Positions 4,837-33,306 of a stretch of 64,000 nt of DNA are shown here, one piece after another; position 1 is the first letter of the stretch; each line of letters begins with the position of its first letter. The stretch lies in the IMG/VR virus record IMGVR_UViG_3300023174_000147; one strand, written 5' to 3'. This stretch comes from an uncultured virus (IMG/VR IMGVR_UViG_3300023174_000147) (Duplodnaviria; Heunggongvirae; Uroviricota; Caudoviricetes). The position numbers were made by a program, and so were the translations under genes. The notes under the pieces are model-generated. The model did no database searches. It saw nothing but the letters and a program-made list of their open reading frames with translations, and was not told the origin of the DNA.

Positions 4837-6573
4837 TTAATTGGCTCCTCCCCCAGTTTTAGCAGTTGCATTAGTTGCAGTTACAATTACAGGTGCAGCA
4901 GAAACTATAGTTCCGATACTATAAATATCTGACAATGATATGTATCCGCTAGTGCCATCACAAGTTTTCCAGAATATTCTAGGATTACCATTAGTAGTAC
5001 TAGCTACGCCCAAGTATGTTAGATCAACATAGCAGCTTTGCATAGCATAGGCATTCAATGTAAGTTGTGGTCTAAAACTAACGTAATATTGAATAGTCTT
5101 AACCGTATTTTTTGTGGTGTGATAATTAAACACCAAACCGTTTATCTTATAGCTTTGACCTGCAGAAATATCATTAAGGAATATTCTATATGTATTGTTA
5201 TATCCCTTATTGTATAATCCATCAACGTCATTACTACTATAAGTAGGTATTCTGATATAAACCTCATAATTAGCTGAATAGTTATATGATGTTGGAGTTG
5301 CAAGTATTAGATTACTGTCCCAGTAAGCAAGCGAAGTTAGATCCATCACGTTATAAACGGTGGATGGAGTCGTTGTGCTTAAACCCCAAGGGAATGCGCT
5401 GACTGAAATTGTGGATGATCTAACTTCTTTTACTCTTTTAACAGGATATAGATATGGGCCTCCGGTAGCACCAGCAGGTTGACCCCCGGTAGATCCGAAT
5501 GTAGTCTGGAGATGTTTACCTGAGGATACACTTCCTCTAGGCTTAGCTGATAATATGGGAGCATTTTTATAGTCAAAAAACTCAAAGGCTGAATCTTGAG
5601 CACTAGAAGATAGTATCGATATACCAGCAGTAGAAGTTGTGGTTCCTGTTGGTGTGCTTTTCCCCGCACTGAAAACATACTGTCCCGACGAGTCATTGGT
5701 AATTTGAACCTTTATAGGTATTCTAGAGATTAAACTCGCAGAAGACAAAGTTAAATTCGAAGAAGATATAGAAATATCGCTACCTACACCAACTGTTGTG
5801 TTTGAGTACAGATAGAAATCACCGGTTCCGCCTAGATTAAAATCATTAACTGATGTTATTTTTGCGCTCTGCCCATATAAAAGTGTTCTTGCAGTATAAG
5901 AGTCTATGGTAATTCCTAATAACGATGAGATTTCAAAATTACCAACGGAAGTGTATCTCAATGAAGCTGAATTACCCAAAGTTCTCCAATAGAATGAGGG
6001 TACACCTGTGGAAATTGCACCAGTCTTAGAAAAAGATAATATAGGTCTAGTTATTTGATCCTCAGTAGACACTAATAACTTGCTTCTAGTTGGATTTATA
6101 CCTGACGCTGAAGAATAATCATCGTCTATAACTAAAGATGTATTAGACTCGTTTAAATTCCCGCTTTTTATACCTACTGCATACTTATCAATTACACCTG
6201 CAGGTCCAACTATTCCGTCATATACAGCAAAATAAGAGGAATTAAATAATGAATATCCGCTATATGACCAAGAACCGGTAGTACCTAATACGTTTACCGG
6301 GTAGTCGCTACTATTAGAATCTATCCACAAATCAAAAGGATTGCCTGATGTTGGTGCATCATCAAGTTTTGACCAAAGGGTTCCTCTTAGACCTGTTGGC
6401 CCAGTTAAACCGGGGTTTCCGGCAGGACCATCATATCCATTAGGTCCTTTAGAACCCTGATGTCCATTCGGGCCCACAGCAAAAGAAAGAATCTGATCAA
6501 AATTATAATTAATCTTCCTTTTTATATCCGAAGCTGAATCTCCAGTAAAAATATATTTAGTGTTAAAGTGCAT
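4837..6573 (-). CDS. tail fibre-like protein with short collagen motif (paralogue 3)
   Basis: IFTGDS..KINYNF then (GXY)11-W; Ser/Thr/Gly-rich body. Confidence 0.7.
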   Translation of the reverse strand: MHFNTKYIFTGDSASDIKRKINYNFDQILSFAVGPNGHQGSKGPNGYDGPAGNPGLTGPTGLRGTLWSKLDDAPTSGNPFDLWIDSNSSDYPVNVLGTTGSWSYSGYSLFNSSYFAVYDGIVGPAGVIDKYAVGIKSGNLNESNTSLVIDDDYSSASGINPTRSKLLVSTEDQITRPILSFSKTGAISTGVPSFYWRTLGNSASLRYTSVGNFEISSLLGITIDSYTARTLLYGQSAKITSVNDFNLGGTGDFYLYSNTTVGVGSDISISSSNLTLSSASLISRIPIKVQITNDSSGQYVFSAGKSTPTGTTTSTAGISILSSSAQDSAFEFFDYKNAPILSAKPRGSVSSGKHLQTTFGSTGGQPAGATGGPYLYPVKRVKEVRSSTISVSAFPWGLSTTTPSTVYNVMDLTSLAYWDSNLILATPTSYNYSANYEVYIRIPTYSSNDVDGLYNKGYNNTYRIFLNDISAGQSYKINGLVFNYHTTKNTVKTIQYYVSFRPQLTLNAYAMQSCYVDLTYLGVASTTNGNPRIFWKTCDGTSGYISLSDIYSIGTIVSAAPVIVTATNATAKTGGGAN

Positions 6574-6582
6574 ATCTGTATC

Positions 6583-8295
6583 TTAAAATGCTGTTGAATT
6601 TGTAGTGTACATTACCCCGCATTTACTTCCCGATATATTACCGCCATATGCGCTATAGTAAACTTTAAACCATCTACTGGTTCCTCCTGTAGAACCAGAT
6701 CCTTTTATATTCATAATCGTAAAATCTATATGTGAAACCCCTATAGCAGTGGCTCCAGTTAAATCTATAGCCTGGACAGAACCAGAAGGAGCATAAGGTG
6801 GATCACTAAAGGTATTAGTCGTGTTTAGCCCTAAGAATCTAATGTATTTACTATCGGAATCTGTTCTGACGCTAAAGCTAATTGCTTCGTAATCGTTTAA
6901 CATGTTTAGCCATCCGCCATTGTTATCAGTACCGCTTCCACCCGTTGCTGGTGTCCATAAGCAAACCCCTACTGTATCGGAAGGACCATATGTTCCAGGA
7001 CTGATAACAAAATCCGAACCATTATTTGCATTTATTCTCTGTGACTGTAGTCCAGTAGCTGAATATACTGCACCTGGTATTGCGGTATACCACTGAACAG
7101 TAATAGTCGGACCTCCCAGGTTGGTAGGGGCGGTAATAGTAGCTGTAAGAGACTGCGGCGGTTGTATTGAGTTAATTCTTTTATTATACCAAACTTCACC
7201 ATTAGCTTTAACATCGAAAATAATTTCTGTTGATGTGTAAGCAAGAAATAATCTAGATGCTCTACTTGATATAGTATTTAGTGATCTGTATGAAAGGTTG
7301 CCCGAATTTGCCTTTGTGCTTTCTAGCCAAAGCGGGGGTAGTGATGAATTTAATGTATTAGTAAAACTAAAAGTAAGAGGCATCTCGAATTTATTTCCCC
7401 CCGCAGCTATAGTGTATTTCATGTTTCTATTGGATAGTAGCATACTTCCAGTAGAAGAAAAATTAAATATAATTTTACCCAAAGCTGATATAGTAAGTCC
7501 CTGGCTTCCGCTAAGATTCAGGTTGAATCCAGTAGAATTATATATTGAGTTAGTTCCTCCATTGCTTGTTGTTGATAGATTTAATTGGCCAGAAGGAATA
7601 TCAAAAAATAAAGAATCCCCAATTTTCCAAGAAAGCCCATATTTTAAAGAGGCAGATGTAGATGTAGAAGACCAATAGAATCTAGGTATTTTAGAATTAA
7701 AAGATCCGTTTGACCCGTAATTGCTTTTGCTAAATGTCATCAGATTTTTTCCGGTTGCTCCTCCGTCAATGGCTATAATTACTTTAGAATATTGCGGGTT
7801 TGCACTTGCTGTAGCACCAGCTGAAGAAAGCGAGTTATCGCTAAGTACTAAGGTATAATCGGAGGGATTTATCGAAGTTAAGGTATATCCAGTATAAGAA
7901 GAATTTCCGACCGATGTTTGAATATTAGGATAAAGTCTAAATATATCCTGGGAAAGAATACCAAATCCATATTGGTTCCAACCAGAGGATGTAGAAAATT
8001 GATATATTGGATTGCCTAAGCCTAGTCCGGTATTCAACCAAAAATCATTATTAATATATCCGGTTGATCCTGGATTTGTATCACTTATAGTCCAAATACT
8101 TCCTCTTTCCCCCATATCACCATAAGAACCAATCGGACCAGTTTGCCCAGTATCGCCCTGAGGTCCTTGATCACCTATCTTACCATAAGGGCCTCCACCA
8201 AATGACAATAGATCAGAAAAGTTGGAGTTGACTTTATCAACTAGAACCTTCTGATTGTCTCCTTCTTGTATTCTTAGTAATTTTAAATCCGGCAT
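6583..8295 (-). CDS. tail fibre-like protein with short collagen motif (paralogue 2)
   Basis: IQEGDN..KVNSNF then (GXY)11-W. Confidence 0.7.
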   Translation of the reverse strand: MPDLKLLRIQEGDNQKVLVDKVNSNFSDLLSFGGGPYGKIGDQGPQGDTGQTGPIGSYGDMGERGSIWTISDTNPGSTGYINNDFWLNTGLGLGNPIYQFSTSSGWNQYGFGILSQDIFRLYPNIQTSVGNSSYTGYTLTSINPSDYTLVLSDNSLSSAGATASANPQYSKVIIAIDGGATGKNLMTFSKSNYGSNGSFNSKIPRFYWSSTSTSASLKYGLSWKIGDSLFFDIPSGQLNLSTTSNGGTNSIYNSTGFNLNLSGSQGLTISALGKIIFNFSSTGSMLLSNRNMKYTIAAGGNKFEMPLTFSFTNTLNSSLPPLWLESTKANSGNLSYRSLNTISSRASRLFLAYTSTEIIFDVKANGEVWYNKRINSIQPPQSLTATITAPTNLGGPTITVQWYTAIPGAVYSATGLQSQRINANNGSDFVISPGTYGPSDTVGVCLWTPATGGSGTDNNGGWLNMLNDYEAISFSVRTDSDSKYIRFLGLNTTNTFSDPPYAPSGSVQAIDLTGATAIGVSHIDFTIMNIKGSGSTGGTSRWFKVYYSAYGGNISGSKCGVMYTTNSTAF

Positions 8296-8324: not shown

Positions 8325-8332
8325 TATATATC
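8325..8332 (-). promoter_or_regulatory. GATATATA putative late promoter
   Basis: Octamer ~30 nt upstream of ORF starting at 8295. Confidence 0.6.
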
Positions 8333-9905
8333 AATAAGTGAAAGATCCCCCAGAACCTCCGGTGGGCCCACTTGCCGCAGTGCTTGCCGACCAAGGCTGA
8401 TACGCTCTATAGTAAACTGTAGTTAGGCCAGATCCAGCAACTCCCCTAGCAATAGTAAGTTCTATAGTCGGAGATAAGAAAGGAAGTGTTACTTTAGTTA
8501 CACAAGAAGCAGAAGCTCCTGTCCCAACACCGATAAACTTGAAACCTGTTGCTGATGTTCCAGGTGAATCCGAACTGTTATGGACGGTTATGTTTATTGA
8601 CTCCCCCATTTGAAGTCCACCGGATCCTCCCCAACCAAAATCAGGGTCGTTATATAATCCTAGCCCTACGTGTTGTCCTGATACTATAGCGGGATTGATT
8701 ATCATCATATTCCCGTTATCTAAAGGGGATCCTACTGTTGCTGAAGTTCTTGATATGAAATACCAATTTATTGCTGTAGCCCCAGTATAACCAATAGTTC
8801 CAGCATTTGTTGAAGGGTAGGTTATGCTTTCCACCACTTTATTCATTTTAAGCTTGCCCTTAGTGGAAAGCCAGAGTTCTTTTCCTGTAGAGTTTTCTAG
8901 TGAAAGATGGTAAACAGTCTGTGAAAGTCCCGCATACGTATCACCGGTTCTTGTTGATCTAAATCCAGCTGTTCCTGTTGGTGTTATTATAGTATGTGGC
9001 GTATCTGGAGCTACAATAGTTGTTGAACTGATTGGATCTAGAAATCCCCCTGTTGTTCCAGATATGTTTAAATATTGACTAGTAATGTTCAATTGATCTG
9101 GAGTATTTATATTATACCCTCCGGTTGAGTATATTCCAGAACTTGAATCTGTTCCATAGGATATGTCCGTACCCTTTTGCGAAATCATATTCATAGAAGA
9201 AAATCCTCCTTCAAATCCACCAGAAGCTCCTATTGTCAGTGATCCACCAGGTATTCTAAGGCCTAAAGAATTTTCTGTTGGTATCGTGGATGGCCAATAG
9301 AAAAAAGGATGTAGTGAATAATCTGCTATAGTGCCGTCTGCTATATCGCTTCTAGAAAATTCTAAAAGAGGTGAATCATTTACACTACTATCATTAGATA
9401 TCGAAAATTTAGAAAGGAGTTCGTCGATAACACCGCTTTCTGGTGTAACGTCGCTAAGGACAAATAAATAATTTTTAGGCAATATCTGGGACATCTGTAT
9501 AGCAACACCGGTGCCTCCTGCATAGGTAGCTCCCGCTGGATAGGTGAAGCTATCTGTTCTAAATAGATCTGATCCTGTTCTTAGATTATATCCTGTAGAA
9601 TTCCATCCTGTCAGTTCTAATGTGTATATGTCACTAGTAGATGAATTTATCCAATAATCTCCTTCTTGTGCATAACCAGCTGGTGTTAGCGAAGAAACAA
9701 ACCATCTTGTTCCCCTTGCTCCGGATAATCCAGTATGGCCAAATGTGCCAACATCACCAATAGCTCCTCTGTCCCCTGTTGGGCCTAAAGTACCCTGGCT
9801 TCCTCCATGAAGTTCTACTATTTCATCGAAGTTGTTATTCAACTTGTTTACTAGCTGACCCTGGTTGTCACCGTAATTTAAGGCCTGTATATTAGTATTT
9901 GGCAT
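8331..9905 (-). CDS. tail fibre-like protein with short collagen motif (paralogue 1)
   Basis: LNYGDN..KLNNNF then (GXY)11-W. Confidence 0.7.
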   Translation of the reverse strand: MPNTNIQALNYGDNQGQLVNKLNNNFDEIVELHGGSQGTLGPTGDRGAIGDVGTFGHTGLSGARGTRWFVSSLTPAGYAQEGDYWINSSTSDIYTLELTGWNSTGYNLRTGSDLFRTDSFTYPAGATYAGGTGVAIQMSQILPKNYLFVLSDVTPESGVIDELLSKFSISNDSSVNDSPLLEFSRSDIADGTIADYSLHPFFYWPSTIPTENSLGLRIPGGSLTIGASGGFEGGFSSMNMISQKGTDISYGTDSSSGIYSTGGYNINTPDQLNITSQYLNISGTTGGFLDPISSTTIVAPDTPHTIITPTGTAGFRSTRTGDTYAGLSQTVYHLSLENSTGKELWLSTKGKLKMNKVVESITYPSTNAGTIGYTGATAINWYFISRTSATVGSPLDNGNMMIINPAIVSGQHVGLGLYNDPDFGWGGSGGLQMGESINITVHNSSDSPGTSATGFKFIGVGTGASASCVTKVTLPFLSPTIELTIARGVAGSGLTTVYYRAYQPWSASTAASGPTGGSGGSFTY

Positions 9906-9908: not shown

Positions 9909-12900
9909 TTATATCTTAGCTATTCTTATATTAAACATTAGTGAGTAATAGAATCCAACTTCAGTTGAATATTCAAACTCATATATTAAATTGGTAATTG
10001 GTGTTAATTTATAGTTGCTATCTATAAAATATTCCATCTTATATCTATCAGAAGGAAATAAATCGCCTCTAACTATTTCTAAATCTGGTATTACAGTATT
10101 TGCTGTCTTTTTAACGTATAAATCAAATTCATCACCCCTGTATATAGGTGCAACATTTACATCTATGTAAGTGTTTATATCATCGTTTATTGATAAGGGA
10201 TCACCTACACCAAATTGTGATATCATGTTGTCTATAAAAACTTTCTTTACGCCAGAATTTAATAGGTATCTTCTAAGTATTCTATCTACTCTTATTATAC
10301 CTTTTATTTTACCCTGATCCGGAAAATTCTGCCAAATAACTTCTGCATTAGTAAATATCTTAAGATCCAATTTATTGTAATCAACACCAGAAAGATAAGG
10401 ACCGACTGATCCTATTCCAGTAGCCGAGTTACTTTTTGATATCTCCTGAACGCTTTTGATATAGCTATCAATTGTTGCATTTATTATCTTTGTATTTCTG
10501 CTACCCGTTGTTCTAGAAATCTCCAAAGTGATATAATTATTAGCCTGAATTGGATCTGGAGTTTGCATAACCTTCGAGCCAAAAAAAGTTTTATATTCTT
10601 TCATTGCTCTAGTACCTGCTACTGGAGATCCTTTACCGGTGCTAATGTATCTGTTATAATATCCAGGATCCCAAGACGAAGAGAATATATTAAAATCTTT
10701 TTTAGCTATAGGGGTTAATCCAATTAAAGGATAAACAGGACCCTGTGGATACGAGCTTGCAGCAGCTAATATATTAGATCCTTCCGAAACCTTGGTATAT
10801 GATAAATTTCTTGATATTCCGAAATATGCTTTATCTGGAGCGAAGTTACAATTTCTAAAAGATAAATCGATTGAATTAGATCCAATTATGGTATCGGATT
10901 TATCCCTATCGAAATGTATAACTTTTCTGAATATAGGCTCATATGCACCAGAATATCTAGTAAAGATAGACGGTAAACCCGGATCTGGATTTTTTATAGA
11001 ATAACCAGTTTCAACCCTTGCGCCTTTTAGTGTTTGCGGTCCACTATAATCTCTAACAACCAACGATCCGCTAGGTTTTGTTATTTTAGTTGGTTTTTCG
11101 AAATAAAGTTCAAACCCATCGGAAACTAATATTGTTGATACGGACGACGAATCCCATTCATAAGTTTGGTATTTTATATACTGGGAACTTCTATTGAATT
11201 TATCCGCTATATAAGATACCGAGCACCTTGATAATATCCCTTTATAATAGTTAGATCCGCCACCTAGCTGTACAACAGGTTTACCCTTGTATATAGAAGA
11301 GGGTCCAACAGGAACGGTTACTGGACTAGATGTGGAAAATGGTATGGCGAATAAATAAGAAGATCCCGTAGCGACCTTTCCGAACTCTACAAAGCTAGGG
11401 CCAACCCCAGTTGGCCAAGGATATGTGGATGATATAGGTGATACGCTAAAGCTTCCGGCCCCTGTTGAGCTTAGTCCTCCCGTAGCACCATCAGGATTTG
11501 GTACATATATAGTATGTATTTCCTCTCTTAGATCCGTATCATAATCAGGATTTTTTACTATATTTATAATTCCCGTTGTTCTGGTTGTATTAACAACACT
11601 GCCTGATACCAACGAAAGATCTAGAGCAGCACTTAATTTTATATCATCTATTGAATAAAATTTTTGCGAAGATGCTAAGGGATATTTTATTTTTTCCTTA
11701 TCGTTTAATGTATAAAGAAGAGTGTAATCTAAAATAGGATTTCCCCCTGTCCCCCCTGTATATCCAAGATCAAATGCCTTCTGATCCTTAATCACTATAT
11801 CACAAACAAAAAGTATAAATTTTTGCTGGTCATTTTCTATTACCTGATATTTAACAGGCGGCTGTATAATAGCGTTATCCTCAGGAATAGCTCTTAGTAT
11901 AGCAGAGAATTTATAATCTTCATAACCCCTATAATATTTTATGTAGCGGTCGGATTCTACCGAACCATCAAAATAAGTATCAGATCTTTTCTTTAGAACT
12001 ATTTTGCATCCTCTAAATATTGTCTCATAATATCCGGAAGCTTCGCTATAAACTAAAGGTGTAAATAATTCTTTAGTGTAAAATGAGCTGTCTCTAAATT
12101 CTGAATCATAATCAGAAGGTTCCACAGTAAAATACGAGGAAAGATATAAGACATCATTCGGATCTGCACTTTTTGCTTTATCCAAATCTATTCTGTGTGG
12201 GAGATAACTGTTCTGATCATTCATAAACTCCTTGGGAAAATATCTAGGCGGTTGCTCCAATAAAAACAATTCATGGGTTAGATATTTCGGATCAGGAGCT
12301 ATTTTTTCAAAGCTTGGAGAAAAATTTGTAGGAGAGAAAGCAGGGCTACTATTTAACCTATACCTATTTCCTCTAGAATCAGTACCTAGTGATGATCCCC
12401 ATTTATTTATATAAGGAACTATTCTTGATATGTTAGCTCTTTGTACCGTATAATTCTCCTTGAGATATTCATATTCAGTATTAATTTTACCGTAATAGAA
12501 TACTTCTTCCTTGGTTGGACTAACGTTCTTAGGGTCAAGTAAAATTCCTTGAATGCCTATAAATCCATTAAAAGATTCTAGGTCTCTGGTATATCCTATG
12601 CTAGAATAAGCTGCTGACGGAGAAGTGTATAAAACATCGGAATACTGTGCAGGGAATACTACCACATTTCCAGATGATGCTGTCCTCGATATAAGATCAT
12701 TTACTGCTGCATTGGAAGAACTTAGATTTAAACTTGGATCTGAAATTTTAAATGACGTATATCCGGTTACCCCGTAAAATAGATTACCCTCATTGTAGAT
12801 ATTTCCTGTACCCCCGTAGCTTATTTGCCCTTTTTTTACAAAATATGGGATATTAGGTTCTATTACACTATCAGTATCTGGTTTTATCTGGAAATACTTA

Positions 12901-15449: not shown

Positions 15450-15473
15450 ATTTTAAGCCCGTATTATGTTTTA

Positions 15474-19124: not shown

Positions 19125-19137
19125 TTAATTTTTAATG

Positions 19138-21342: not shown

Positions 21343-21366
21343 TTTTATTTTTTATTTATTATTTTA

Positions 21367-22281: not shown

Positions 22282-22310
22282 TTTATTATTTTTATTTCTT
22301 TTTGAATTGA

Positions 22311-22320
22311 AATATATATC
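22311..22320. promoter_or_regulatory. AATATATATC: GATATATA on minus strand overlapping AATATATA on plus strand; possible bidirectional promoter
   Basis: Lies between divergent starts at 22281 (-) and 22344 (+). Confidence 0.55.
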
Positions 22321-22343
22321 TACATCTCAGACAACACTTAAAT

Positions 22344-22499
22344 ATGGCAATACTCAAAAATGAACTTACCATAATGGACATCAAAGACATATCTTTAAGT
22401 CCAAAACAAGTGATTTATTCCAAGAATATAGACAATTTTACTAGCATCAAAAAAATCAATCAGATTAAGGATAGTCCGTGCGGTTACTACAAAAAATAA
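22344..22499 (+). CDS. small hypothetical protein (51 aa, MAILKNELTIMDIKDISLSPKQ...), not in ORF track
   Basis: Manual translation; fills gap and ends 7 nt before phoH. Confidence 0.45.
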   Translation: MAILKNELTIMDIKDISLSPKQVIYSKNIDNFTSIKKINQIKDSPCGYYKK

Positions 22500-22506
22500 A
22501 TATAAT

Positions 22507-23274
22507 ATGGCTAACAGAAAAAAAAGAATTAGTGACGAAGAATTTTATGAAACGTTCCCCCCGGGATACCAATCTCCTAATGTATCTAAATTTGATCTAC
22601 AAAAATTAAAAGTAGATTTCAAATTTAAAAACGAGAGTCAAAAAAATCTAATAAATTTAATTAATGGAAATAAAATCACTATCGTGGCTGGTCCAGCTGG
22701 AACAGGAAAAACTTATCTAGCATGCGCACAAGCTTTAAAGCTTTTAAAAACGGACCAAAGATTTAAAAAAATAATTCTAGTTAAAAGTGTGACTGTTTTA
22801 GAAGGGGAGGAAGTAGGATTTCTTAAAGGTGATCTTAAAGAAAAAATGTTGCCATTTACTATATCTTTCCTCGATAACTTCCATAAAATAATCGGGGAGG
22901 GATTAACTCAAGCGATGCTGGACCAGAACTACATTGAGGTTTTGCCGCTAGCTTTTATTAGGGGGAGATCAATAGATAATGCAATTATAATTGTGGATGA
23001 AGCTCAAAATATAACTCAAAAAAATATGAGATCCACAATGACCAGAATAGGTACGGACACCAAGATGATTATTACAGGGGACACCAAACAGGTAGACATG
23101 AAAAACCCAAAGCTATCATCGCTTGACTTAGTTGTTAAAATCTTCCAGAATAAGGATAATATTGGAACAATGCACTTTGGTATTGGCGATATTGTCAGGG
23201 ATCCTATAGTAAAATTAATAGAGGAAACTTTTGATGAATGGGATGAGAAAAACTCAAAACAAAATAAAGAATAA
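22507..23274 (+). CDS. phoH: PhoH-like ATPase
   Basis: GPAGTGKTYLA, GFLKGDLKEKM, PLAFIRGRS, IIVDEAQN, TRIG, ITGDTKQVD, DIVRDP. Confidence 0.95.
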   Translation: MANRKKRISDEEFYETFPPGYQSPNVSKFDLQKLKVDFKFKNESQKNLINLINGNKITIVAGPAGTGKTYLACAQALKLLKTDQRFKKIILVKSVTVLEGEEVGFLKGDLKEKMLPFTISFLDNFHKIIGEGLTQAMLDQNYIEVLPLAFIRGRSIDNAIIIVDEAQNITQKNMRSTMTRIGTDTKMIITGDTKQVDMKNPKLSSLDLVVKIFQNKDNIGTMHFGIGDIVRDPIVKLIEETFDEWDEKNSKQNKE

Positions 23275-23286
23275 GTCTTTTACGGC

Positions 23287-26200
23287 TTATTCTTTATTAA
23301 ACGTAGAATCCGGATTATCTGGTATAATTATAGCAGATCCAAATTGACCCTTATTAGTTCTCATTATTTCAATTTCTTGATTTATTAGATCCCTACCTAA
23401 TCTCATTGCTTTGTAATCTCTAGCAATAAAAGGAGGATTAGGATATCCATAGTCGATAGAATCTACAAAATCCGGCCTTTTATCATCCGGCCTTTTGTCT
23501 TTGTGATTTATTACTTTTATAAATCCTGCCTTAGAAACTTCGTAAACATTACCCTCTGAATCTTCTACCTGATTGTATATAGTATAATAGCCTGGATTTA
23601 CGAACGTATAAATAAAATAAGGGCTTTCTTTAATATTAAGAAATTCCTCACCCGTTTCAGGATTACTTAATACCCATTTATTATTTGTCTTACCGTAAAT
23701 ATTAGAAGCATAATTATTAAAAATTACAGTGGACAGTAACGGGATTTCCATATAACTATCTGTCGAATGAACATCGCACCAAGTCCAAGCACCTGAACCT
23801 GGTCTGGATATAATATTACCTAAGTTTATACCAAGTTCTGGTTTATATTGTTTTATTATGGAAGAAAATCCTGCAGTAGCACCAAAATATATTAGACTTC
23901 CCGTTCCCCCTGTAGTTCCGCTAGTATTTATACCTGACGAAAATAGGTTAGATGAGCTGTCTTTAGTGAATGCTATATCGCCAGTGAATAGGCCTAAATT
24001 TTCTAGATCCAAATTTTTACCTGCATTATTTGTCTTCAATAAAGCTACGTTATATCCGGTTAATCCTGGCGTGTTTATCTGATATGATGATATGAATTGA
24101 TTGTTATCTAATTTATCAAAATATAAAATTTCCATCTCCCTATCAAAGACACCAGTCTTATTTGAGAATATATTCTTTACTGTTCCCTGGTCAGTTATCT
24201 CTGCAGTATAAAGATAATTATCTCCAGTCGATCCTAGAATTATCTGGCTTCCGAAATAACTACCTGTTATACCCTGTCCATAGTCACCTATTATAGTGTT
24301 TACGCAGTATCCAGACTTATCTTTGGCTGAATATATTTTATCTATATTTCCGTTTGCAGATGTTCCTCCTATATTTATTACTCCCCCTGTTATCCCATTT
24401 CCTGTTGGCCCCGATATTATGTAAAAAGGATAGCTGCTATATGGAGAGGGCGATGGGTGATAAACGTTTAATCCGAACATGCTAAAGTTACCTTTAGATT
24501 GTCCTGTAATCAAAACACCCGTTTCGTTATCTGATGATTTTATCCCGCTTATGTAAAAACCCCCGGTAGTTCCTGTAGTATTTATGACATTATCTAGAGC
24601 AAGATTATCGCAATCCAATTTTACGTAAGACCCAAAGGTATTCTCTGATGCATTGCCTATAATACTAGGTGATGTACTTAAATCATCATTTCTATTCCAA
24701 GCATTTTTTAATGTGTCAAAAGTGACCGGGCTACTTGCTTCGTGTGTAATAGCAAGATTCACATAGTATCTACTGGAATCTATTGATGTGTAAGCAGTTC
24801 CCCCTGGATATGTTGATGTTGGTACGAAATGTCTAAATGAATTTATTTTATATGCTTTTTGTACTGAATTGTTATAATCTCCAGTAACACCAGCAAATGA
24901 TGAAATGTTACCTAGATCTCTTCCTATTTTAGCTACAAATATAGCTTTAGAATTTTGCTGGGACGTATTATTATAAAGTGTATATGGATAAACTACTGGG
25001 AATCTGTCATATATGTAAATACTAACCGGTGTTCCGTTAGTGTAATTATTAACTGCATTAGTTGAACCGTATTGATAAGTAACCCCGATACTGAAAGAAT
25101 CCGAATCTCGGTAAATCTGATCTATTCTATAATAGGAGATGTCAACGGAATCACTATCTACATCTAGTTCTATAGTTTGTCCTGTTAATATATTGCTAAT
25201 AGTAGAATACTGGTTAACACTGGAGGAATCCGTGAAATTAAGGTAGATTCTGTTAACAGTATTATAATTTCCGCCATATCCTGCAGTTACGCCGATAAAT
25301 CCTAGATCGCAATATGTTGAGGCGACAGTATCCTTATTACCAATAGAAAGATCCCATATTGCGGAAAGAAGAACTGCTCCCGTATCGGGAACCCCTATTC
25401 CTGCTATAGATCCAGAAGTTGCACCGGGTACCATAGGGTTAGTAACTCCTATCGGAGAACCTGTTGCTCCAGTAGGTCCACTTAGATTTTCATATGCGCT
25501 CCATACATACTCGCCAACTTCTATAAACTTATCAAATGTTCCGGAAGCATATAAATAAAGACCATCTTCACTTGAACATATACTTTGGACATCAGTACTA
25601 AATCCTCTAAAAGGAAGTATCGAATCAACCTTTCCGCTTTCCGAATAAGCGACTATAAATCCGGTTTTACCGTTATTTGCGGTATTGTATGTCGAAGAAG
25701 TACTAGAATTTAAGCTAGGACCAACACCAGATAATATAGCTGGTGTATTGTCTGCGTAATAGCCGAATTGAACCGAATAACTTCCGGTGTATATGTCGGG
25801 TATAACACTTCCCGCGATGTAGTATTTATTTTCACCAAAGAATGTTTGAGATGTAGATGATGTTACGTTAACCATACCAATATTACCTGATGCTCCAGAA
25901 ATATACGAGATTGCTTCATCCCAAACAGGTGCTTGTATGCTTTCGGTTATCTGATCTTCTTCAAATGTTGGGATCGGCCAATTATTCCAATATGCTTGTT
26001 TACCAGCTCTTCCGTCAGCTATATCACTTAGCTTAGTTGTCAAAAATAAATTATCTAGGTCTAATCCAGGATGCTTGTATGCTAAAAAAGAATTATCATA
26101 AACCATCCACTCAGGATAATCCCACGTGTATTTGTTTATTTTTGGCAAAGGTGCGCCTCCCCCGGTAGCAGTATAATATGTGAAGTTCCATCCAGTAGCT

Positions 26201-27306
26201 CCTGCGTATTTTGATGATCCATAAACGTGGGGTAGATCGTAATCGAAATTTGAAAGAGTATTATAACCAAGAACCCATAGGTCATTTTCGTGTATAGTGA
26301 GATTATCTTGTGTTGTATTATGTCCTATTATCTCTATACCAAGAACACCATTGGAGGGTAAGGCGGAATTAGAATTATTAAATTGAGTGTGTGTAGTGCC
26401 ATTGAAATGCCAAAGCCCGGTACCGAGTCCAAGCTCGCCATCTCCTTTGGAGTAGAAAACGTGGCCATTTTCTCTTGCCTTTATAGATGTTATTGGGCCT
26501 CCGCTAATAGAGTAATTCCAAAATTCTATGCCATCGAAATAAGAAAGTCCAATATCTGTCCCTATCCAAAGGTTACCATTTTCATCAAAATCTAAGCAAT
26601 AAATATTATCTGATATTATCCCACTTGTGCTTGAGTTATAGATCTTTGCTTGTTGAATGTATTTAGATCCGTTTGTTAGTGTAAGAGTCTGTAGCTTTCC
26701 CTGCGGAACTACAAAGAGTCCTTGGGAAGTACCCATATAGTATAAATAGTCCTTTCCGCCATATCCCTTTGTTTTTATATCATAAATATGTGGCCAGGTG
26801 TAATCATCAACGGTTTCATCCCATTTATCAATTTCTTTAAAATAATAAAATAACCTTCCTCCGGTAGCTCCTTTAATTCTAGTGTAAGCAGATGCACCTG
26901 TACCCCCTATTCCGTTAAGAGGATTAACGAAAGCTAAAATATCGTCACCGAAAGGACAGGCATAAACCAGGGAGACCTCTTGAGGCTGATCGAATGTACC
27001 TAATGCTTGGAATGTCCAATTGCCGCCCTCGTCAACATTGTTGGTATTAATCCAAAAAACAGCAACCTGATTGAAATTACCCGCTGTTGGTCCTTGTGCA
27101 ACACCAACCCAAGCTTTATCATCAGGATCTATCGAGATAGATCTAGTATCTAAGTAATACGGCGAAACTTGTGGAACTGCAGAGTTTGTGCTATTATAAT
27201 ATTCCCAACTTGATCCATTAAATCTTCTAACATCCTGTCCCGAAGCCCAAACATAAAATTCTTGGTCTAAATCTATCTGATTAATATAAAGTGAGCTGCT
27301 TGGCAT
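23287..27306 (-). CDS. virion protein with Reg_prop/PorZ-like beta-propeller repeats and C-terminal PKD-like domain
   Basis: YNSSTSGIISDNIYCLDFDENGNLWIGTDIGLSYFDG; FNNSNSALPSN; YTFVNPGYYTIYNQVEDSEGN. Confidence 0.65.
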   Translation of the reverse strand: MPSSSLYINQIDLDQEFYVWASGQDVRRFNGSSWEYYNSTNSAVPQVSPYYLDTRSISIDPDDKAWVGVAQGPTAGNFNQVAVFWINTNNVDEGGNWTFQALGTFDQPQEVSLVYACPFGDDILAFVNPLNGIGGTGASAYTRIKGATGGRLFYYFKEIDKWDETVDDYTWPHIYDIKTKGYGGKDYLYYMGTSQGLFVVPQGKLQTLTLTNGSKYIQQAKIYNSSTSGIISDNIYCLDFDENGNLWIGTDIGLSYFDGIEFWNYSISGGPITSIKARENGHVFYSKGDGELGLGTGLWHFNGTTHTQFNNSNSALPSNGVLGIEIIGHNTTQDNLTIHENDLWVLGYNTLSNFDYDLPHVYGSSKYAGATGWNFTYYTATGGGAPLPKINKYTWDYPEWMVYDNSFLAYKHPGLDLDNLFLTTKLSDIADGRAGKQAYWNNWPIPTFEEDQITESIQAPVWDEAISYISGASGNIGMVNVTSSTSQTFFGENKYYIAGSVIPDIYTGSYSVQFGYYADNTPAILSGVGPSLNSSTSSTYNTANNGKTGFIVAYSESGKVDSILPFRGFSTDVQSICSSEDGLYLYASGTFDKFIEVGEYVWSAYENLSGPTGATGSPIGVTNPMVPGATSGSIAGIGVPDTGAVLLSAIWDLSIGNKDTVASTYCDLGFIGVTAGYGGNYNTVNRIYLNFTDSSSVNQYSTISNILTGQTIELDVDSDSVDISYYRIDQIYRDSDSFSIGVTYQYGSTNAVNNYTNGTPVSIYIYDRFPVVYPYTLYNNTSQQNSKAIFVAKIGRDLGNISSFAGVTGDYNNSVQKAYKINSFRHFVPTSTYPGGTAYTSIDSSRYYVNLAITHEASSPVTFDTLKNAWNRNDDLSTSPSIIGNASENTFGSYVKLDCDNLALDNVINTTGTTGGFYISGIKSSDNETGVLITGQSKGNFSMFGLNVYHPSPSPYSSYPFYIISGPTGNGITGGVINIGGTSANGNIDKIYSAKDKSGYCVNTIIGDYGQGITGSYFGSQIILGSTGDNYLYTAEITDQGTVKNIFSNKTGVFDREMEILYFDKLDNNQFISSYQINTPGLTGYNVALLKTNNAGKNLDLENLGLFTGDIAFTKDSSSNLFSSGINTSGTTGGTGSLIYFGATAGFSSIIKQYKPELGINLGNIISRPGSGAWTWCDVHSTDSYMEIPLLSTVIFNNYASNIYGKTNNKWVLSNPETGEEFLNIKESPYFIYTFVNPGYYTIYNQVEDSEGNVYEVSKAGFIKVINHKDKRPDDKRPDFVDSIDYGYPNPPFIARDYKAMRLGRDLINQEIEIMRTNKGQFGSAIIIPDNPDSTFNKE

Positions 27307-27329
27307 TTATTTTTTTTTAAATTATATTC

Positions 27330-27337
27330 TATATATT
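27330..27337 (-). promoter_or_regulatory. AATATATA variant of putative late promoter
   Basis: ~24 nt upstream of ORF starting at 27306. Confidence 0.45.
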
Positions 27338-27365
27338 TGAATTACTATAATTGGTATATTAGCAA

Positions 27366-29069
27366 TTAAGGATTTCCGAAATACCAGCCTCTTACTGGGG
27401 TATCAGCTGAAGTGTACACTGTCTGATATGGGTTAGCTATCCTATTAGTGTTAAAAGAGATCCAATTTGAAATCCCAGGAGAGGTTGGTGTTCCTGGAAA
27501 AACATAAGGAGGCCAAGGTCCATTATCAGTTAAATCCACTGCTACTATATAAGGTCCAGTCCCTCTATCTATAATAGAGATCTTAAGTCCATTGAAAGCA
27601 TTTACATCGTATGCTCCCAAGTCATACGCCCATGCGTAATCGGGAGAGGCTGAAGCAACTATATTGGAATCATATCCAGCTGAAATTAAAGCTCGGTTTA
27701 TTAATGTTGCAACACCAAATCTTAATCCAGAAGTTGTATCCTGCATAACTACTAAATTACCATCCGGACTATTCCCTGGTGATCCCCCTGAGGAAATTGT
27801 AACGGGGACTGTAATATCTTGTTCAGGCTCTATCATATCAATTGATCCAGAACCGCTGAATTTTATTGTTAAATAAAGCTCTATTTTTAATCCCGTATTT
27901 GTAAACTGACTGGAGGGTAAACAAGCTCCACCTTTACCTCCACTCGCTCCGGTTGCTCCGTCAAGGCCTACACTATAAGCTACCGGGGATCTACCTAAAC
28001 CTATACTTAATTCAAGAGCTCTGGAAGACTGATATCCTATGGAAGCTTCATTAAAAATCAGAGATTCGACCTGCTTAGCTGTCCAATACCTGTTAATTAA
28101 TAAATTTTTAGCGTATGCGTTTGTATCTGCGAAATAAAATACATAACTAAAATAAGTACCAAGGTCTTCAGGGATCATATAATTACCCTGTGTGTATCTG
28201 GTTAAAGATCTCCATCCTGTCTGTGTAACTCCAAGAGCATCAAAGGCAGAGCTTGAAGCAATGTATTGTCCTCCAAACATTCCGCTGTTTGTAAACTCTA
28301 TATCTTGTGAAGAAGACCAGTAGGTAGTAGTTTCTCCTTGAGCCCTAAATTGTGTGTTGTTTATAGGGAGGTATGATGCGTAATTAGTATCTACAAGATA
28401 GGCATTACCTGAACCAGCCATACCCAATGTTCCCACAGCTGCTCCTGTGTCACTAACATTATAGTAATTAGTTCCTGCAGTGAAACCCGACATTAGGTAA
28501 TTATAAGGCTCGAATCCGCCATTTTTGCTGTATGTAACATTCACGTTGGAAGACGATGTGTTTCCCAAAGCGCTATTGAAAGCAACAGATGATGTTGAAG
28601 TGTAAGTTGAATACACAGCACCAGATTCAGATCCAGTTAAATTCAGCCAGCTGTAAAGGGGGGTCTGCTCAGATTGCGACGTTCCGGTAAATCCGGTCAC
28701 CCCAGCAAGGATCCAGCTATAATAAGAAAGATTCCCGGTAGATCCTGCTGCAGTATAGCTTACAGATGTTCCCATGGGTACTGATGAAACAGTATCAACA
28801 TTTGTAGATAACGTAACCGAAATATTCTCGGGTGACACAACAATTATATTCGATTCTTCTTTGGTAGAGCTATTAGTTTCTACTCCTTTATATACTGTCA
28901 AGGAAACATTAAACCCTAAAGATGATGGTGAAAGATATCTAACAATAGGATTGGTATCAGCGGAAAATGTTGGGCTTCCCCCAGAAAAACCCCAACGTCT
29001 TCTTGTTGGATTTCCAACTGAGGCATCTTGGAATAAAACGTAATCCCCCTGGTTTATCGATAGTGACAT
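27366..29069 (-). CDS. virion protein with N-terminal PKD domain
   Basis: VLFQDASVGNPTRRRWGFSGGSP..S...NPIVRY...FNVSLTV. Confidence 0.65.
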   Translation of the reverse strand: MSLSINQGDYVLFQDASVGNPTRRRWGFSGGSPTFSADTNPIVRYLSPSSLGFNVSLTVYKGVETNSSTKEESNIIVVSPENISVTLSTNVDTVSSVPMGTSVSYTAAGSTGNLSYYSWILAGVTGFTGTSQSEQTPLYSWLNLTGSESGAVYSTYTSTSSVAFNSALGNTSSSNVNVTYSKNGGFEPYNYLMSGFTAGTNYYNVSDTGAAVGTLGMAGSGNAYLVDTNYASYLPINNTQFRAQGETTTYWSSSQDIEFTNSGMFGGQYIASSSAFDALGVTQTGWRSLTRYTQGNYMIPEDLGTYFSYVFYFADTNAYAKNLLINRYWTAKQVESLIFNEASIGYQSSRALELSIGLGRSPVAYSVGLDGATGASGGKGGACLPSSQFTNTGLKIELYLTIKFSGSGSIDMIEPEQDITVPVTISSGGSPGNSPDGNLVVMQDTTSGLRFGVATLINRALISAGYDSNIVASASPDYAWAYDLGAYDVNAFNGLKISIIDRGTGPYIVAVDLTDNGPWPPYVFPGTPTSPGISNWISFNTNRIANPYQTVYTSADTPVRGWYFGNP

Positions 29070-29091
29070 TGAAAGATAAGATAATTTAAAC

Positions 29092-29099
29092 TATATATC
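29092..29099 (-). promoter_or_regulatory. GATATATA putative late promoter
   Basis: ~23 nt upstream of ORF starting at 29069. Confidence 0.6.
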
Positions 29100-29112
29100 C
29101 ACTATAAAAGGA

Positions 29113-32100
29113 TCATGGATAAGTGCCGTAGGTAAAACCTGCAATAAGCAATCCGCTACCCCCTATAATCGAAGGTGGAGCAGAGCTGGCAGAAACAGAA
29201 ACGTTTGAATTATTTATTATTACATTTATAGGTGGTGTATCTAAGGGAAGATTACCGCTTTCATTTGGGATAGGTCTATAGTAAAAATTCTGTATATTTG
29301 GATCAGAAGAGTTATTTAATTGATCTGCAAGTTCACCAATAGTTAATGACGATGCTCCTGGCTGTATTGTCATTCCGATAGGATACGGATAAAATTCATT
29401 ACCTGTGCTGATTTTTATAAAATCCCCAGGGGTTATATTATGTAATTCATATCCACCGAGCCAGTCATTATTAAACTCATAATCAAACCACGTGTGTGCA
29501 TAACCTTCGTCCCATGCATTATCAGTAAATATGTTCCAGTTTAATTTTTTAGTCCCCCAGTATTTTAAATTTGCATTAGGTAAATCCGGGCTAGATTCAG
29601 ACCAATACACATAAGATTCGATTGGACTAACTCCACCACTCAATCCAGTAGAACTAGAAATTACAGAAAGAGATCCAGTAGCTTCATAGGTAAGTTGAAC
29701 CCCATTTTGATCAGCACCCAATTCATCAGGTGCGCTGATAACTAACGTAACATTAGGGGAGTTTCCTGGATCTGTACATGATGCAAAATAATCTGGATAT
29801 GTTCTAAGCGAGTTAATGGACGATGTGATAGCATTCACACTCCTATATAAAGAATCTCCAGATTCGCTAGATCCTACCAATCTTCCGCCTACATATACTG
29901 AAATAGAACCTGCTCCTGTAGCATATTGATTTGGGTATATTAAAGAATATACTGATAATCTAGTAGGTCCAGCTTGATTAATTGTATAACTCCATGAACT
30001 TTGGATTATTATCGGTATTTTAAAAGTATTATTAGATCCGTCGGGTACTATTATTGTCCATCTTCCAACAAGCTGAGGTATAGTTCCAAATAATGTTACT
30101 TCATCACCTGTTTGTAGACCATGATTAGCAGAACAAATAACGGTGGCAAAACTATATTGGCCAGGGATTATCTGATATGAAGTTATTTCGGTTATGGTTA
30201 TATTAGATTGGGTAAGAGAAATATATCCAGTTGCTCCGATAGGATCCGCATTAACTTTAACATAAGCATCCTGTCCTTCTTCTGATTTATTGCCATAAGT
30301 TGCAAAATCTAAAATCTCACTAGGTATTGTTTTTTCTAAAACCTCTATAGATTCACCTTCAGCTGGATATTCCCAGATTGAGTTATAATCTTCCCAACCT
30401 TTAAAAACATTTCTCCATGTATAATCTTCAACTTCTCTGTATCTTGTCCAAGCATCTATATCAACGATTTTAGGGTTAACCGTTATAGCTCCATTTTTTA
30501 TTGCTACTGTTTTAGCGTTAAAAGCGTCATAGACGTTGCACGTTACTTGATAAACCCCAGTGTATGGTACAAAGTGGGCTAAGGTATAAAAGTCCAGTAT
30601 AGAGCCTCTAAATTGAAAATTATAAGGGCTTCCTTGCTGTGTCGCTGGCTTGTTCACTATCCATTCGATATCAACCATATTAGAAAAATCAACATTTTTC
30701 CAATTCAATAAAGAATAGTTTTGTATGCTTGAAAATAGTGATGCCTCATCGGTATTTATAACAGTAGAGTTATCAAGGAAAATTGTATAAATACCCGTCG
30801 AATAGCTAACCGCAGTTACTGTACCGAACACGTTTGTTGGCTTATATAAAACCCTACTTCCGACTTTAAATACAGGGGTCAAAAGAGAAGACCAATTTAT
30901 ATTCAATTCATCCCATGACCATCTATCCAAAATAAGTTCCAAAACTATTGGCATTCCTATAGGGGTCTTATAGGTCAATCCTGTTATCGGATCAATATAA
31001 GCAGGCGGATCATATTTCCCATCACCAAGTTGTAATAATTCTCCATTCTGCTTCAGATCATAAAAGTTACTAATAGCGTTTAGCAATGAATCATTCTGAG
31101 TTGGTGTATAATACTGTTGATTTGAAAGCGGATCTATTGTATTTCCAAGATCCGATAATTCGGATGGAGCTACATTTATAACTCCATTTAAAAGAGATTT
31201 ATTATTGGATGAATAGTAGTAAACAGGAGATGTTTGTTGTGGGCTTACATTCCAAATTAAACCGGGTCCTCCCGAGGTAACACCATTATTAGTTAAACCG
31301 ATAGGGTCAACTTGAGATAGTAGTGGATCTGTGGTTATATAAAAATCAAATCCTGCTGTAGAAAGACTAAATTCATAGGTCTTTCCTGCGTTAATATTCA
31401 ATACAGGATTTGGTCCTGATAAGCCAGTTGCTCCGGTAAGTCCAGTTATGTATATGGCACTTCCTGTACCACCCAATACACTTGTCTGAACATTAAAATA
31501 ATTATAATATGAAGAAGGGGTTTGTATGGATGTACTTAGGGGTCTAATTGAAAAGTTCCTAAGATCCTCAATAAATCCAAAATCTGGTGTAACTTTAATA
31601 TCAGTATAAAAACCAGAATCAATATCAGGTCTTTGCATAATATCAGTCCATGCTTTGGTATTATAAACATTAAAGTAAATTCCCTCCCCTGTTATATCTA
31701 TAATTCTAGCATTTAATGGTAAATAATCTCTCTTAAGTCTTTCCTTAAGGGCAAACATTTTTATAAGGACCTCTTCCTGAGTGAATTGAAAAGAATCAAC
31801 TACTTCTGGATATCCATAGTCCGAATCATATCCTGTCGTTTTGTTTATATCGTAATAAAGTCCAAACAAAGACGTTTTTTTATAGGTTCTACTAGGCAGT
31901 ATTGTATTGTCTGAAGAAACGTCTAACACATATTGTCCATCTGAATTCGGCCCGTATGTTTGAACTAATTTATATTTTCCTGAATTAGGATTATCTAAAA
32001 CATCTCCAATCTGATAGCCCTGGCTATATCCTTTAGACTGCTGTTGTTTTATTGCATCAAGAAATCCTTGATTTTGCTGTAACGGTGATTCTAATCGTGC

Positions 32101-33306
32101 GCTCTTATATTGGAGATTTAACCAATATTCCTTTATTCTTAAATCCTGATATCCAAAAAATCTGATTGCATTTATCAAACCCTTATAACTACCTAGATAT
32201 GGGAAAATCTCCTCTCCAGCTATTAATAATTCTTTTCTTTTGTCGTTTATCTCTATGTAATTAGGTAAAGGCTCCTTCGGATCATGATCTCTAAGTATAA
32301 TCGAATCTTCAGGGTAAAAAGCTCTTCCCATGTTTTGTAACATGACGCTAAACCTTTCGTCCTCACCGACAATTTCTCCATAGAAATCCATCTCAATAAT
32401 TTTTTCGGGAGTTCCTGTACTAATATCTTCTATGATTAATTTCCTCTCGTAGATATTAGAAGCTAAATCTGTTGCATTTATTGCAACGTTTATAGATAAA
32501 GCCTCGGAATTTACTACTGATGTTGAGACATATCCGCTTCCTGTGAGTGTATCTGCAGAATTTGAGTCTACACTATAAACTATATTGGGATAACTGATTA
32601 TCAAAGGTTGGCCGTCTCCGCCTTCCATTTGATTCTCTATTTTATAAGTGAATATAATCTCAGATACATCAGTCTCACCATAACTATCATTATACCATCT
32701 AGATCTCCACTTAGCAGCGGTAGCTCCAGTAGCCCCTGTATGCGGAAGTCCATATTCTAAAGTACCAGAATTATTAAGTGTCTGAACAATGAATATTTGC
32801 TGGTTCTCGTAAAGTCCGGAAGAAACTGGATCGAAATATATGTTACCCTTAAAATAACCGCCTGGCCTATTTGTGTAAGCTGTAGTGAAATATATTTGAT
32901 TATTTAGACTTATTAATCTTTGTCCGTTTATAGCATCAAGTTCAAAGCTAACCCTTAGGTAAGTGGAGTTATTAGTTATAGAGGATATCTTTGCTTCAAA
33001 TTCGCCTTGACCTACGATTCTACCTTTAATGTATACGTCTGCACCATTAAGTATGTAGTTATTTATTTCTAATCCCCACTCAAGAATGTTAAATCCATTT
33101 AGATCTTCTATATTCAGATCAATATAACCAGGATCAACATCAAGTTGACTAACAGAAACCTGCCCAGATGATGAAGATGAAGATGATGTTACATAGGTAA
33201 AATTATGATCGAGATTACTCGGTCCGGTTGCACCTATATAATCGAAGTTTAATGGACTCCCGGTTTTATCGTAAAAATTAAGCCTCCTATAGAAAAATTC
33301 TGACAT
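29113..33306 (-). CDS. multidomain baseplate wedge protein (gp7-like position) with cupredoxin-like, SH3-like, PKD-like and HGL..GD (FCCH-like) inserts
   Basis: Follows gp25/gp6-like genes; GSYKGLINAIRFFGY; accessory domain motifs recognised by eye. Confidence 0.55.
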   Translation of the reverse strand: MSEFFYRRLNFYDKTGSPLNFDYIGATGPSNLDHNFTYVTSSSSSSSGQVSVSQLDVDPGYIDLNIEDLNGFNILEWGLEINNYILNGADVYIKGRIVGQGEFEAKISSITNNSTYLRVSFELDAINGQRLISLNNQIYFTTAYTNRPGGYFKGNIYFDPVSSGLYENQQIFIVQTLNNSGTLEYGLPHTGATGATAAKWRSRWYNDSYGETDVSEIIFTYKIENQMEGGDGQPLIISYPNIVYSVDSNSADTLTGSGYVSTSVVNSEALSINVAINATDLASNIYERKLIIEDISTGTPEKIIEMDFYGEIVGEDERFSVMLQNMGRAFYPEDSIILRDHDPKEPLPNYIEINDKRKELLIAGEEIFPYLGSYKGLINAIRFFGYQDLRIKEYWLNLQYKSARLESPLQQNQGFLDAIKQQQSKGYSQGYQIGDVLDNPNSGKYKLVQTYGPNSDGQYVLDVSSDNTILPSRTYKKTSLFGLYYDINKTTGYDSDYGYPEVVDSFQFTQEEVLIKMFALKERLKRDYLPLNARIIDITGEGIYFNVYNTKAWTDIMQRPDIDSGFYTDIKVTPDFGFIEDLRNFSIRPLSTSIQTPSSYYNYFNVQTSVLGGTGSAIYITGLTGATGLSGPNPVLNINAGKTYEFSLSTAGFDFYITTDPLLSQVDPIGLTNNGVTSGGPGLIWNVSPQQTSPVYYYSSNNKSLLNGVINVAPSELSDLGNTIDPLSNQQYYTPTQNDSLLNAISNFYDLKQNGELLQLGDGKYDPPAYIDPITGLTYKTPIGMPIVLELILDRWSWDELNINWSSLLTPVFKVGSRVLYKPTNVFGTVTAVSYSTGIYTIFLDNSTVINTDEASLFSSIQNYSLLNWKNVDFSNMVDIEWIVNKPATQQGSPYNFQFRGSILDFYTLAHFVPYTGVYQVTCNVYDAFNAKTVAIKNGAITVNPKIVDIDAWTRYREVEDYTWRNVFKGWEDYNSIWEYPAEGESIEVLEKTIPSEILDFATYGNKSEEGQDAYVKVNADPIGATGYISLTQSNITITEITSYQIIPGQYSFATVICSANHGLQTGDEVTLFGTIPQLVGRWTIIVPDGSNNTFKIPIIIQSSWSYTINQAGPTRLSVYSLIYPNQYATGAGSISVYVGGRLVGSSESGDSLYRSVNAITSSINSLRTYPDYFASCTDPGNSPNVTLVISAPDELGADQNGVQLTYEATGSLSVISSSTGLSGGVSPIESYVYWSESSPDLPNANLKYWGTKKLNWNIFTDNAWDEGYAHTWFDYEFNNDWLGGYELHNITPGDFIKISTGNEFYPYPIGMTIQPGASSLTIGELADQLNNSSDPNIQNFYYRPIPNESGNLPLDTPPINVIINNSNVSVSASSAPPSIIGGSGLLIAGFTYGTYP

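Follow-up and report, generated by a model that had tools for sequence, protein, structure and literature searches.

A Gly-x-Thr-Gly motif scattered through virion proteins of a T4-like jumbo phage clade, and a candidate phage-encoded O-glycosyltransferase

The structural module and its motif-bearing proteins

We analysed a 64,000-nucleotide stretch of DNA from an uncultured Caudoviricetes virus (IMG/VR record IMGVR_UViG_3300023174_000147), hereafter called the window. It represents the structural module of a T4-like jumbo phage, with genes for tail tube, baseplate wedge, neck, hub and a gp23-type capsid protein. A sequence-only reading had noticed that proteins of different folds encoded between positions 4837 and 33306 share a short motif, G-x-T-[G/A/S], and had proposed it as the recognition site of a phage-encoded modifier such as a Thr O-glycosyltransferase. 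Judging from gene order and weak matches to fibres, these proteins would be outer parts of the virion. The relevant features are listed below, with the motif variants written as GxTG and GxTA.

936..1484: tail tube gene
4837..6573, minus strand: fibre-like protein of 578 aa; short collagen neck containing 2 GxTG, with 4 more beyond it
6583..8295, minus strand: fibre-like protein of 570 aa; short collagen neck, outside which lie 3 GxTG and 2 GxTA
8331..9905, minus strand: fibre-like protein of 524 aa; short collagen neck, outside which lie 4 GxTG
9909..15449, minus strand: large tail or baseplate-module protein of 1,846 aa, its place in the virion suggested by gene order; 7 GxTG
15474..19124, minus strand: tail-module protein of 1,216 aa (phrog_29329); 1 GxTG and 2 GxTA in one loop region; not enriched when taken alone
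19138..21342, minus strand: conserved module protein of 734 aa that served as the clade marker; residues 174-183 form a GTTG/GMTG loop
21367..22281, minus strand: Gly/Thr-rich module protein of 304 aa; 2 GxTG; not enriched when taken alone
23287..27306, minus strand: beta-rich protein of 1,339 aa whose fold matches are multi-propeller proteins; 15 GxTG and 4 GxTA, most of them at predicted loop positions, the richest carrier
27366..29069, minus strand: module protein of 567 aa; 4 GxTG in all, with fast turnover of sites among orthologues
29113..33306, minus strand: protein of 1,397 aa adjoining the baseplate wedge gene (phrog_28177); 6 GxTG
33310..62391: contrast region encoding baseplate wedge, neck, hub, enzymes and other proteins; GxTG at chance level
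33840..35564: baseplate wedge gene
62483 to beyond the window end, minus strand: T4 gp23-type major capsid gene
63644..63691, minus strand: GVTG-ATA and GGTA sites in the variable insertion of the capsid protein

GxTG is strongly enriched in the window

All eight peptides quoted by the sequence-only reading from 9909..33306, and the one quoted from the capsid protein, were found in the translated open reading frames (ORFs). The ten minus-strand proteins of 4837..33306 (9,075 aa) were counted with collagen tracts masked; counts below are observed versus expected unless otherwise stated. GxTG occurred 47 times, compared with 6.7 in whole-protein shuffles, 7.8 when shuffling was confined to 30-aa windows and 9.0 in 12-aa windows, and the largest count among 200 shuffles was 17. 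The proposed enrichment thus survived control for composition. Under stricter masking, in which tracts of four or more triplets were removed, 43 sites remained versus 8.5, the largest of 1,000 shuffles giving 18. Among 11,165 gapped and ungapped patterns GxTG ranked at the top, with a log10 p of -22.6. The predicted rarity elsewhere also held, the other 33 proteins of the window having 4 GxTG versus 4.3.

These counts confirm that the motif is genuine but narrower than first described. The fourth position is chiefly Gly; GxTA was weakly enriched (13 versus 4.6), but GxTS was at chance (11 versus 9.0), and GxSG was not enriched in the same ten proteins (12 versus 8.8). Under stricter masking, 43 of 130 TG pairs were preceded by Gly at position -2, compared with 11 of 97 SG pairs. 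The motif had been said to recur in nearly every large protein: eight of the ten were individually enriched (p<0.05), and those at 15474..19124 and 21367..22281 were not. Its occurrence in the capsid insertion was borne out as far as the peptide itself is concerned, but the window capsid taken alone, with 2 versus 0.5 (p=0.11), was not significant, and of its two GxTG one, a GPTG in the core, is also present in motif-free relatives such as Lak-B5. As the sequence-only reading had held, the motif is distinct from the Bacteroidota general O-glycosylation sequon, which it gave as D-[ST]-[ALVIMT] and which was not enriched here (33 versus 34.5).

Continuous Gly-x-y collagen is not the context of the sites, since 43 survive masking and 29 of these have no adjacent triplet. 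A repeat at the DNA level was ruled out by the distinct 12-nt codings of 51 of 54 sites. Taken together, these two results show that the window motif is neither collagen nor a DNA repeat. An NGxTG fibre repeat accounts for only 2 of the 43 sites.

The motif is restricted to a clade and its sites turn over

The marker protein at 19138..21342 is 35% identical to its counterpart in the uncultured 462-kb phage LR756500 and 27-30% identical to those of MaF61, Lak, pT24/PTm1 and PAU. Matches to it at 64-100% defined the clade of the window as 75 IMG/VR loci, which are related to one another and partly redundant; GxTG was enriched 3.1- to 8.9-fold in all 75. A search with the LR756500 marker returned 44 loci, of which 23 were analysed, the remainder being contigs of the window clade that had already been counted. 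Of these 23, one turned out to belong to the clade (19 versus 4.4). The remaining 22 outgroup loci, at 29-36% identity, had 0-5 sites versus 0.5-3.5, the highest ratio being 4 versus 0.7. At the level of single proteins, the LR756500 orthologues of 9909..15449 and 29113..33306 contain no GxTG, and the orthologue of the former in the sister phage G062 contains 2, or 0 once collagen is masked.

Across six orthologue families, sites fell in 129 alignment columns, of which 17 were occupied in more than half of the sequences and 85 in 15% or fewer. The flanks of the sites were less conserved than average in four of the families and not in the other two. Some sites were retained in 33 of 33 orthologues while their flanks varied, and the GTTG and GMTG sites of the marker loop were present in 40 and 33 of 41 orthologues. 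Five permuted motifs gave 107-252 instances versus 920 for GxTG. In the pooled orthologues the third position was specific for Thr (4.3-fold, versus 0.8-fold for Ser) and the fourth favoured Gly (4.5-fold) and Ala (3.3-fold). GxTS reached 1.5-fold and, like GxSG, was dropped from the motif. At x, Ala, Val and Pro were favoured, and Asp, Asn, Glu and Gln were avoided.

In relatives the motif is also found in insertions of the sheath and the capsid protein. The sheath gene lies outside the window; in each of 11 clade genomes (11 of 11) the variable middle part of its product had 5-8 sites versus 0.7-1.1, compared with 0-1 sites in 10 non-clade genomes. Pooled over 25 related clade sequences, the capsid insertion had 32 GxTG versus 7.8; seven enzyme-free outgroups had 2 versus 0.8. 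In the clade member G085 (L624-L635), which also has GxTG, Thr-Pro-Thr repeats were the top motif of the structural proteins (94 versus 24), a possible second acceptor type.

A GT2-TPR protein is the candidate enzyme

The search for glycosyltransferase (GT) and sugar genes beyond the window, which had been suggested as a check, was run in G002, a stand-in genome of 348 kb in which the genes follow the same order and the marker protein is 94% identical. When 112 ORFs of G002 were compared with Pfam, six GT2, GT4, GT6, GT7, GT9 and GT11 genes were found, together with GDP-mannose dehydratase, epimerases, UDP-Galp mutase and methyltransferases. Most of these genes vary among relatives. One 421-aa protein, encoded on the minus strand at contig position 215079-216344 of G002 and here called GT2-TPR for its GT2 domain and tetratricopeptide repeats, is constant. 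The variable glyco gene islands of G002 lie in L089-L091, L097 and L105 (about 22-66 kb, 187-191 kb and 342-347 kb). In L088:1-10180 the genome also has two very long fibre genes of Gly-Thr-Ser/Gly-Ser-Ser triplets, which make up a collagen-like Ser/Thr repeat that contains no Pro and differs from GxTG.

The N-terminal GT-A (GT2) domain of GT2-TPR scored above the cut-off for Pfam PF00535, and its DxD motif, D118-A-D120, was invariant across 79 homologues. From residue 206 onward the structure model is helical, and TPR matches were obtained by both sequence and fold. Profile matches included GmaR (2e-21), SunS (3e-20) and 7msk (ThuS; 4e-14). The model had a predicted local distance difference test score (pLDDT) of 94, and its six best fold matches were SunS and ThuS. 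Membership in the SunS family of S-glycosyltransferases (TIGR04195) was rejected at 29.9 bits, the curated cut-off being 350. By sequence, GT2-TPR is likely a protein O-glycosyltransferase related to GmaR, SunS and ThuS.

Distribution of the enzyme and its Gly-x-Thr partners

GT2-TPR had strong matches in 21 of the 31 clade records. Every record with a completeness of 90% or more was among these (10 of 10), and the ten clade records without a match are 37-52% complete. None of seven near-complete outgroup records had the gene, and a profile search returned none in LR756500, MaF61, LR756504, Lak-B5, pT24 or PAU. We then screened 333 ORFs of G002 for those common to G004, G085 and at least one genome of a second lineage described below, and absent from LR756500 and two cyanophages. 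Four qualified: two UV endonucleases, both missing from the second-lineage genome G109, the GT2-TPR gene and its GT2 paralogue. Only the last two match all four motif-positive genomes and none of the three negatives.

Homologues of the enzyme often lie near Gly-x-Thr proteins. An ORF with six or more GxTG was present within 8-10 kb of the homologue in 40 of 78 bacterial loci (an unselected set, with one short, phage-like locus excluded) and in 17 of 31 distant viral loci. Such an ORF was absent from all 20 control loci centred on other GT2 genes; the control genomes were picked after the data had been seen, and the paired figure of 17/20 versus 0/20 is therefore biased. In many environmental Chlamydiota and other bacteria (L262-L339), GT2-TPR lies beside Gly-Ala-Thr/Gly-Pro-Thr collagen genes, one of which has 399 GxTG. 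The residue x is mostly Ala or Pro in the bacterial collagens, and mostly Val, Ala, Ser, Gly or Thr at the phage sites. All 20 phage records with the enzyme had five or more tandem GxTGxTG; of the 15 without it, 14 had one or none, and several of these 15 are near-copies of one another.

A second lineage with the enzyme and the motif

G071, whose capsid is about 57% identical to those of cyanomyoviruses, and G109 carry a GT2-TPR of 39% identity. In a quick, midpoint-rooted tree it was placed among bacterial sequences, apart from the enzyme of the window clade. GxTG was the top or second pattern in both genomes (58 versus 14.1 in G071; 55 versus 16.2 in G109), and a sheath-family protein of this lineage had 145 GxTG versus 18 over 41 sequences. 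In comparison, two enzyme-free cyanophages had 10 versus 16.5 and 15 versus 20.6. The second lineage apparently reached the state of enzyme plus scattered sites separately.

The motif of this lineage broadens to G-[ILV]-T and GxTF in G068, G071 and G109. GxTF occurred 19 times versus 1.9 in G068 and 22 versus 5.1 in G071, and was not enriched in the window. A different pattern, G-I-x-T, was strongly enriched in structural proteins of the cyanophages S-8S55 and S-SKS1 (57 versus 10 and 60 versus 15; L552-L571).

The scattered sites as putative acceptors

On the basis of the enzyme distribution and the motif, we propose, with a probability of roughly 0.65, that the scattered GxTG sites are acceptors of the phage GT2-TPR enzyme. 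A Thr O-glycosylation sequon for a phage enzyme, as the sequence-only reading suggested, remains the best explanation in view of the candidate enzyme, its match in presence and absence, the precedent described below and the second lineage; what has changed is the sequon, now G-x-T-G with a weaker G-x-T-A. The acceptor would have a small or hydrophobic x, and the modifier would be a soluble, phage-encoded GT-A/TPR protein O-glycosyltransferase of the GmaR/SunS/SgtA type. The sequon looks to be derived from Gly-x-Thr collagen, the usual partner of the GT2-TPR family, rather than freely invented. With fibre collagen as the ancestral substrate, single sites would have been gained and kept in variable loops of tail-module proteins and in the sheath and capsid insertions. 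The enzyme would add the first sugar to the site Thr in the host cytoplasm, and the particle may gain a coat as this sugar is extended through the variable set of GT and nucleotide-sugar genes of the phage. Such sites would be exposed, and the coat could serve protection, hydration or masking. As judged from sequence, the whole particle is probably sugar-coated in this clade. The data would fit three states: neither enzyme nor motif; enzyme with collagen fibres; and enzyme with sites spread to globular virion proteins. In a more ambitious version, T4-like phages converted a collagen enzyme, on two or more occasions, into a system that O-glycosylates the virion in general and whose four-residue sequon is portable. 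Sites would have accumulated in loops of capsid, sheath and baseplate proteins, and each particle would bear hundreds to thousands of phage-made glycans that are extended by a variable sugar gene island; we rate this version slightly below even odds.

Several results weigh against the proposal. The enzyme alone does not predict scattering and is not sufficient for it. The sister phage G062 (marker 50%, enzyme 47% identical) had only 9 GxTG versus 6.9 overall and none in its orthologues of the large proteins after masking, its sites lying in a fibre and in short runs in two other proteins. Tunturi_5, G059 and G061 pair the enzyme with collagen only, and LR756501 and LR756502 have divergent enzyme copies and collagen runs, with 0-1 sites in sheath and capsid insertion. 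Conversely, cyanophage S-8S55 is the exception that has GxT collagen without the enzyme, and cyanophages without it still have an enriched Gly/Thr motif, G-I-x-T. In the window clade the GT2-TPR gene is not beside GxTG-rich ORFs (0 of 49 loci), and when scattered sites were sought in non-collagen proteins beside the bacterial homologues, they occurred 87 times versus 80.5. The copy belonging to the window itself was unseen: an identical contig extends only 12 kb past its left end, G002 places the gene about 24 kb past the equivalent point, and a GT2 search in the record nearest to the window matched none. Seven of the 25 clade capsid insertions lack GxTG, and the NGxTG fibre repeat makes up 24 of the 58 G071 sites, leaving 34 versus 12.3. 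The C. difficile collagen glycosyltransferase SgtA takes Ser as well as or better than Thr according to the peptide data of PMC7157674, yet the phage motif is Thr-only, with GxSG not enriched. The comparison as a whole rests on about two independent origins.

Mapping the motif on a predicted structure, another suggested check, gave a weak result. The model of 23287..27306 covers the first 1,200 residues, with a mean pLDDT of 76.5 and propeller-type fold matches. Coil takes in 12 of the 15 motif Thr; for other Thr the figure is 51 of 86, and for control G-x-nonT-G sites it is 7 of 10. Loop position in the model is weak support for exposure.

Fragments G076, G077, G082 and G083 showed 1.7- to 2.7-fold GxTG on small counts. 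The short GATG/GGTG runs of G062 lie in two non-fibre proteins at contig positions 15653-18244 and 126370-127734. In one of these proteins, encoded about 6 kb away from GT2-TPR, the N-terminus shows the pattern that the sequence-only reading called a capsid-targeting sequence.

Enzyme-bearing phages without scattering would be expected if the enzyme glycosylated Gly-x-Thr collagen only and the scattered sites, left unmodified, reflected a habit, structural or mutational, of fibre repeats and Gly/Thr-rich loops in this clade that was retained because it aids folding or packing. The G-I-x-T motif, which arose in cyanophages without the enzyme, and the large share of NGxTG in G071 also speak for this explanation. 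We nevertheless consider it unlikely. NGxTG is negligible in the window, where most sites lack an adjacent triplet, and orthologues of the same fold lack the sites. Sites are found in the sheath and the capsid, which are not trimeric fibres; Ser does not substitute for Thr; and the second lineage, having acquired the enzyme separately, has the same motif in its sheath.

Less probable still is that the sites are modified or bound by something else, such as a cytoplasmic GT2-TPR of the host, another phage GT, or a decoration or chaperone protein that recognizes GxTG. G002 has many other GTs, homologues occur in bacteria of many phyla, and several ORFs, including a GT4, are common to G002, G004 and G085 and missing from G062 and LR756500; however, none of those ORFs is found in the second lineage, which shares only the GT2-TPR gene and its paralogue, and the Bacteroidota-type sequon is at chance level. 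We regard as very improbable the idea that recombination or slippage copied pieces of collagen genes to these positions as neutral DNA. The genomes do contain GxT collagen genes, and some sites consist of two or three triplets with a period of 3 (GATGATA, GPTGATG), but the codings are almost all distinct, the sites are restricted to virion proteins, some are held in every orthologue despite varying flanks, and x differs between the phage sites and the bacterial collagens. The phage GT2-TPR enzyme acting on GxTG thus remains the reading that we prefer.

Two further loci of the window were recorded. A homing/HNH endonuclease gene (60673-62391) lies directly downstream of the capsid gene, with none at that place in G002. 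At 53671-55689, an asparagine-synthetase-like amidotransferase gene adjoins a nucleotide-kinase-like gene, a pair possibly involved in base modification.

Comparison with known systems

The closest precedent is C. difficile SgtA, which in its published description (PMC7157674) has an N-terminal GT-A domain and C-terminal TPRs, the same architecture as the phage enzyme. It transfers O-linked N-acetylglucosamine (O-GlcNAc) onto Thr of the collagen-like GPT/GAT peptides of BclA3, and in vitro it modifies single-site peptides reading GPTG or GATG (PMC7157674, Tables 1-2). The likeness to SgtA/BclA3 extends to the bacterial homologues of the phage enzyme, which also adjoin Gly-x-Thr collagens. In contrast, globular virion proteins carry the phage sites, singly or in pairs, and the phage gene is far from them.

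By profile and fold, the best solved relatives are Listeria GmaR and the glycocin transferases SunS and ThuS. Their substrates are flagellin or leader-bearing peptides. The phage enzyme shares about 14-17% structural identity with these proteins (PDB 22ao, 7msn/7msp and 7msk). GmaR is described as a GT domain followed by TPRs (PMC3150276); the phage enzyme is without its anti-repressor domain.

Glycan coats on virions also have a precedent. In mycobacteriophage Che8, subunits of the capsid and the tail are reported to be coated with glycans by GTs that the phage itself encodes (Freeman et al. 2023, as cited in PMC12619734 and PMC11256854). As described there, the mycobacteriophage glycans are at the C-termini of capsid and tail tube proteins, whereas the motif reported here is an internal one of four residues in about ten proteins of a T4-like jumbo phage. 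By gene content G002, with DnaJ, glutamine synthetase and many GTs, resembles the moraphages, large aquatic phages with predicted Bacteroidota hosts that are described as having DnaJ, glutamine synthetase and four core GT orthogroups (PMC12619734). The available excerpts of that account assign no substrate to the GTs and mention no sequon. A literature search on glycosylation of phage virions or collagen, with subscription papers mostly outside its scope, found no internal sequon.

If the proposal is true, glycosylated virions can be predicted by a rule at the sequence level in uncultured jumbo phages of an abundant group, whose many orphan glycosyltransferases would gain a likely function, and two lineages would exemplify the evolution of substrates toward an enzyme. 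The proposal also points to a small, soluble enzyme and to peptides with which it could be tested simply. The enzyme type, the collagen substrate and the glycosylation of phage virions were each known already; what is new is their apparent combination in the spread of a collagen-type acceptor onto globular capsid, sheath and tail proteins.

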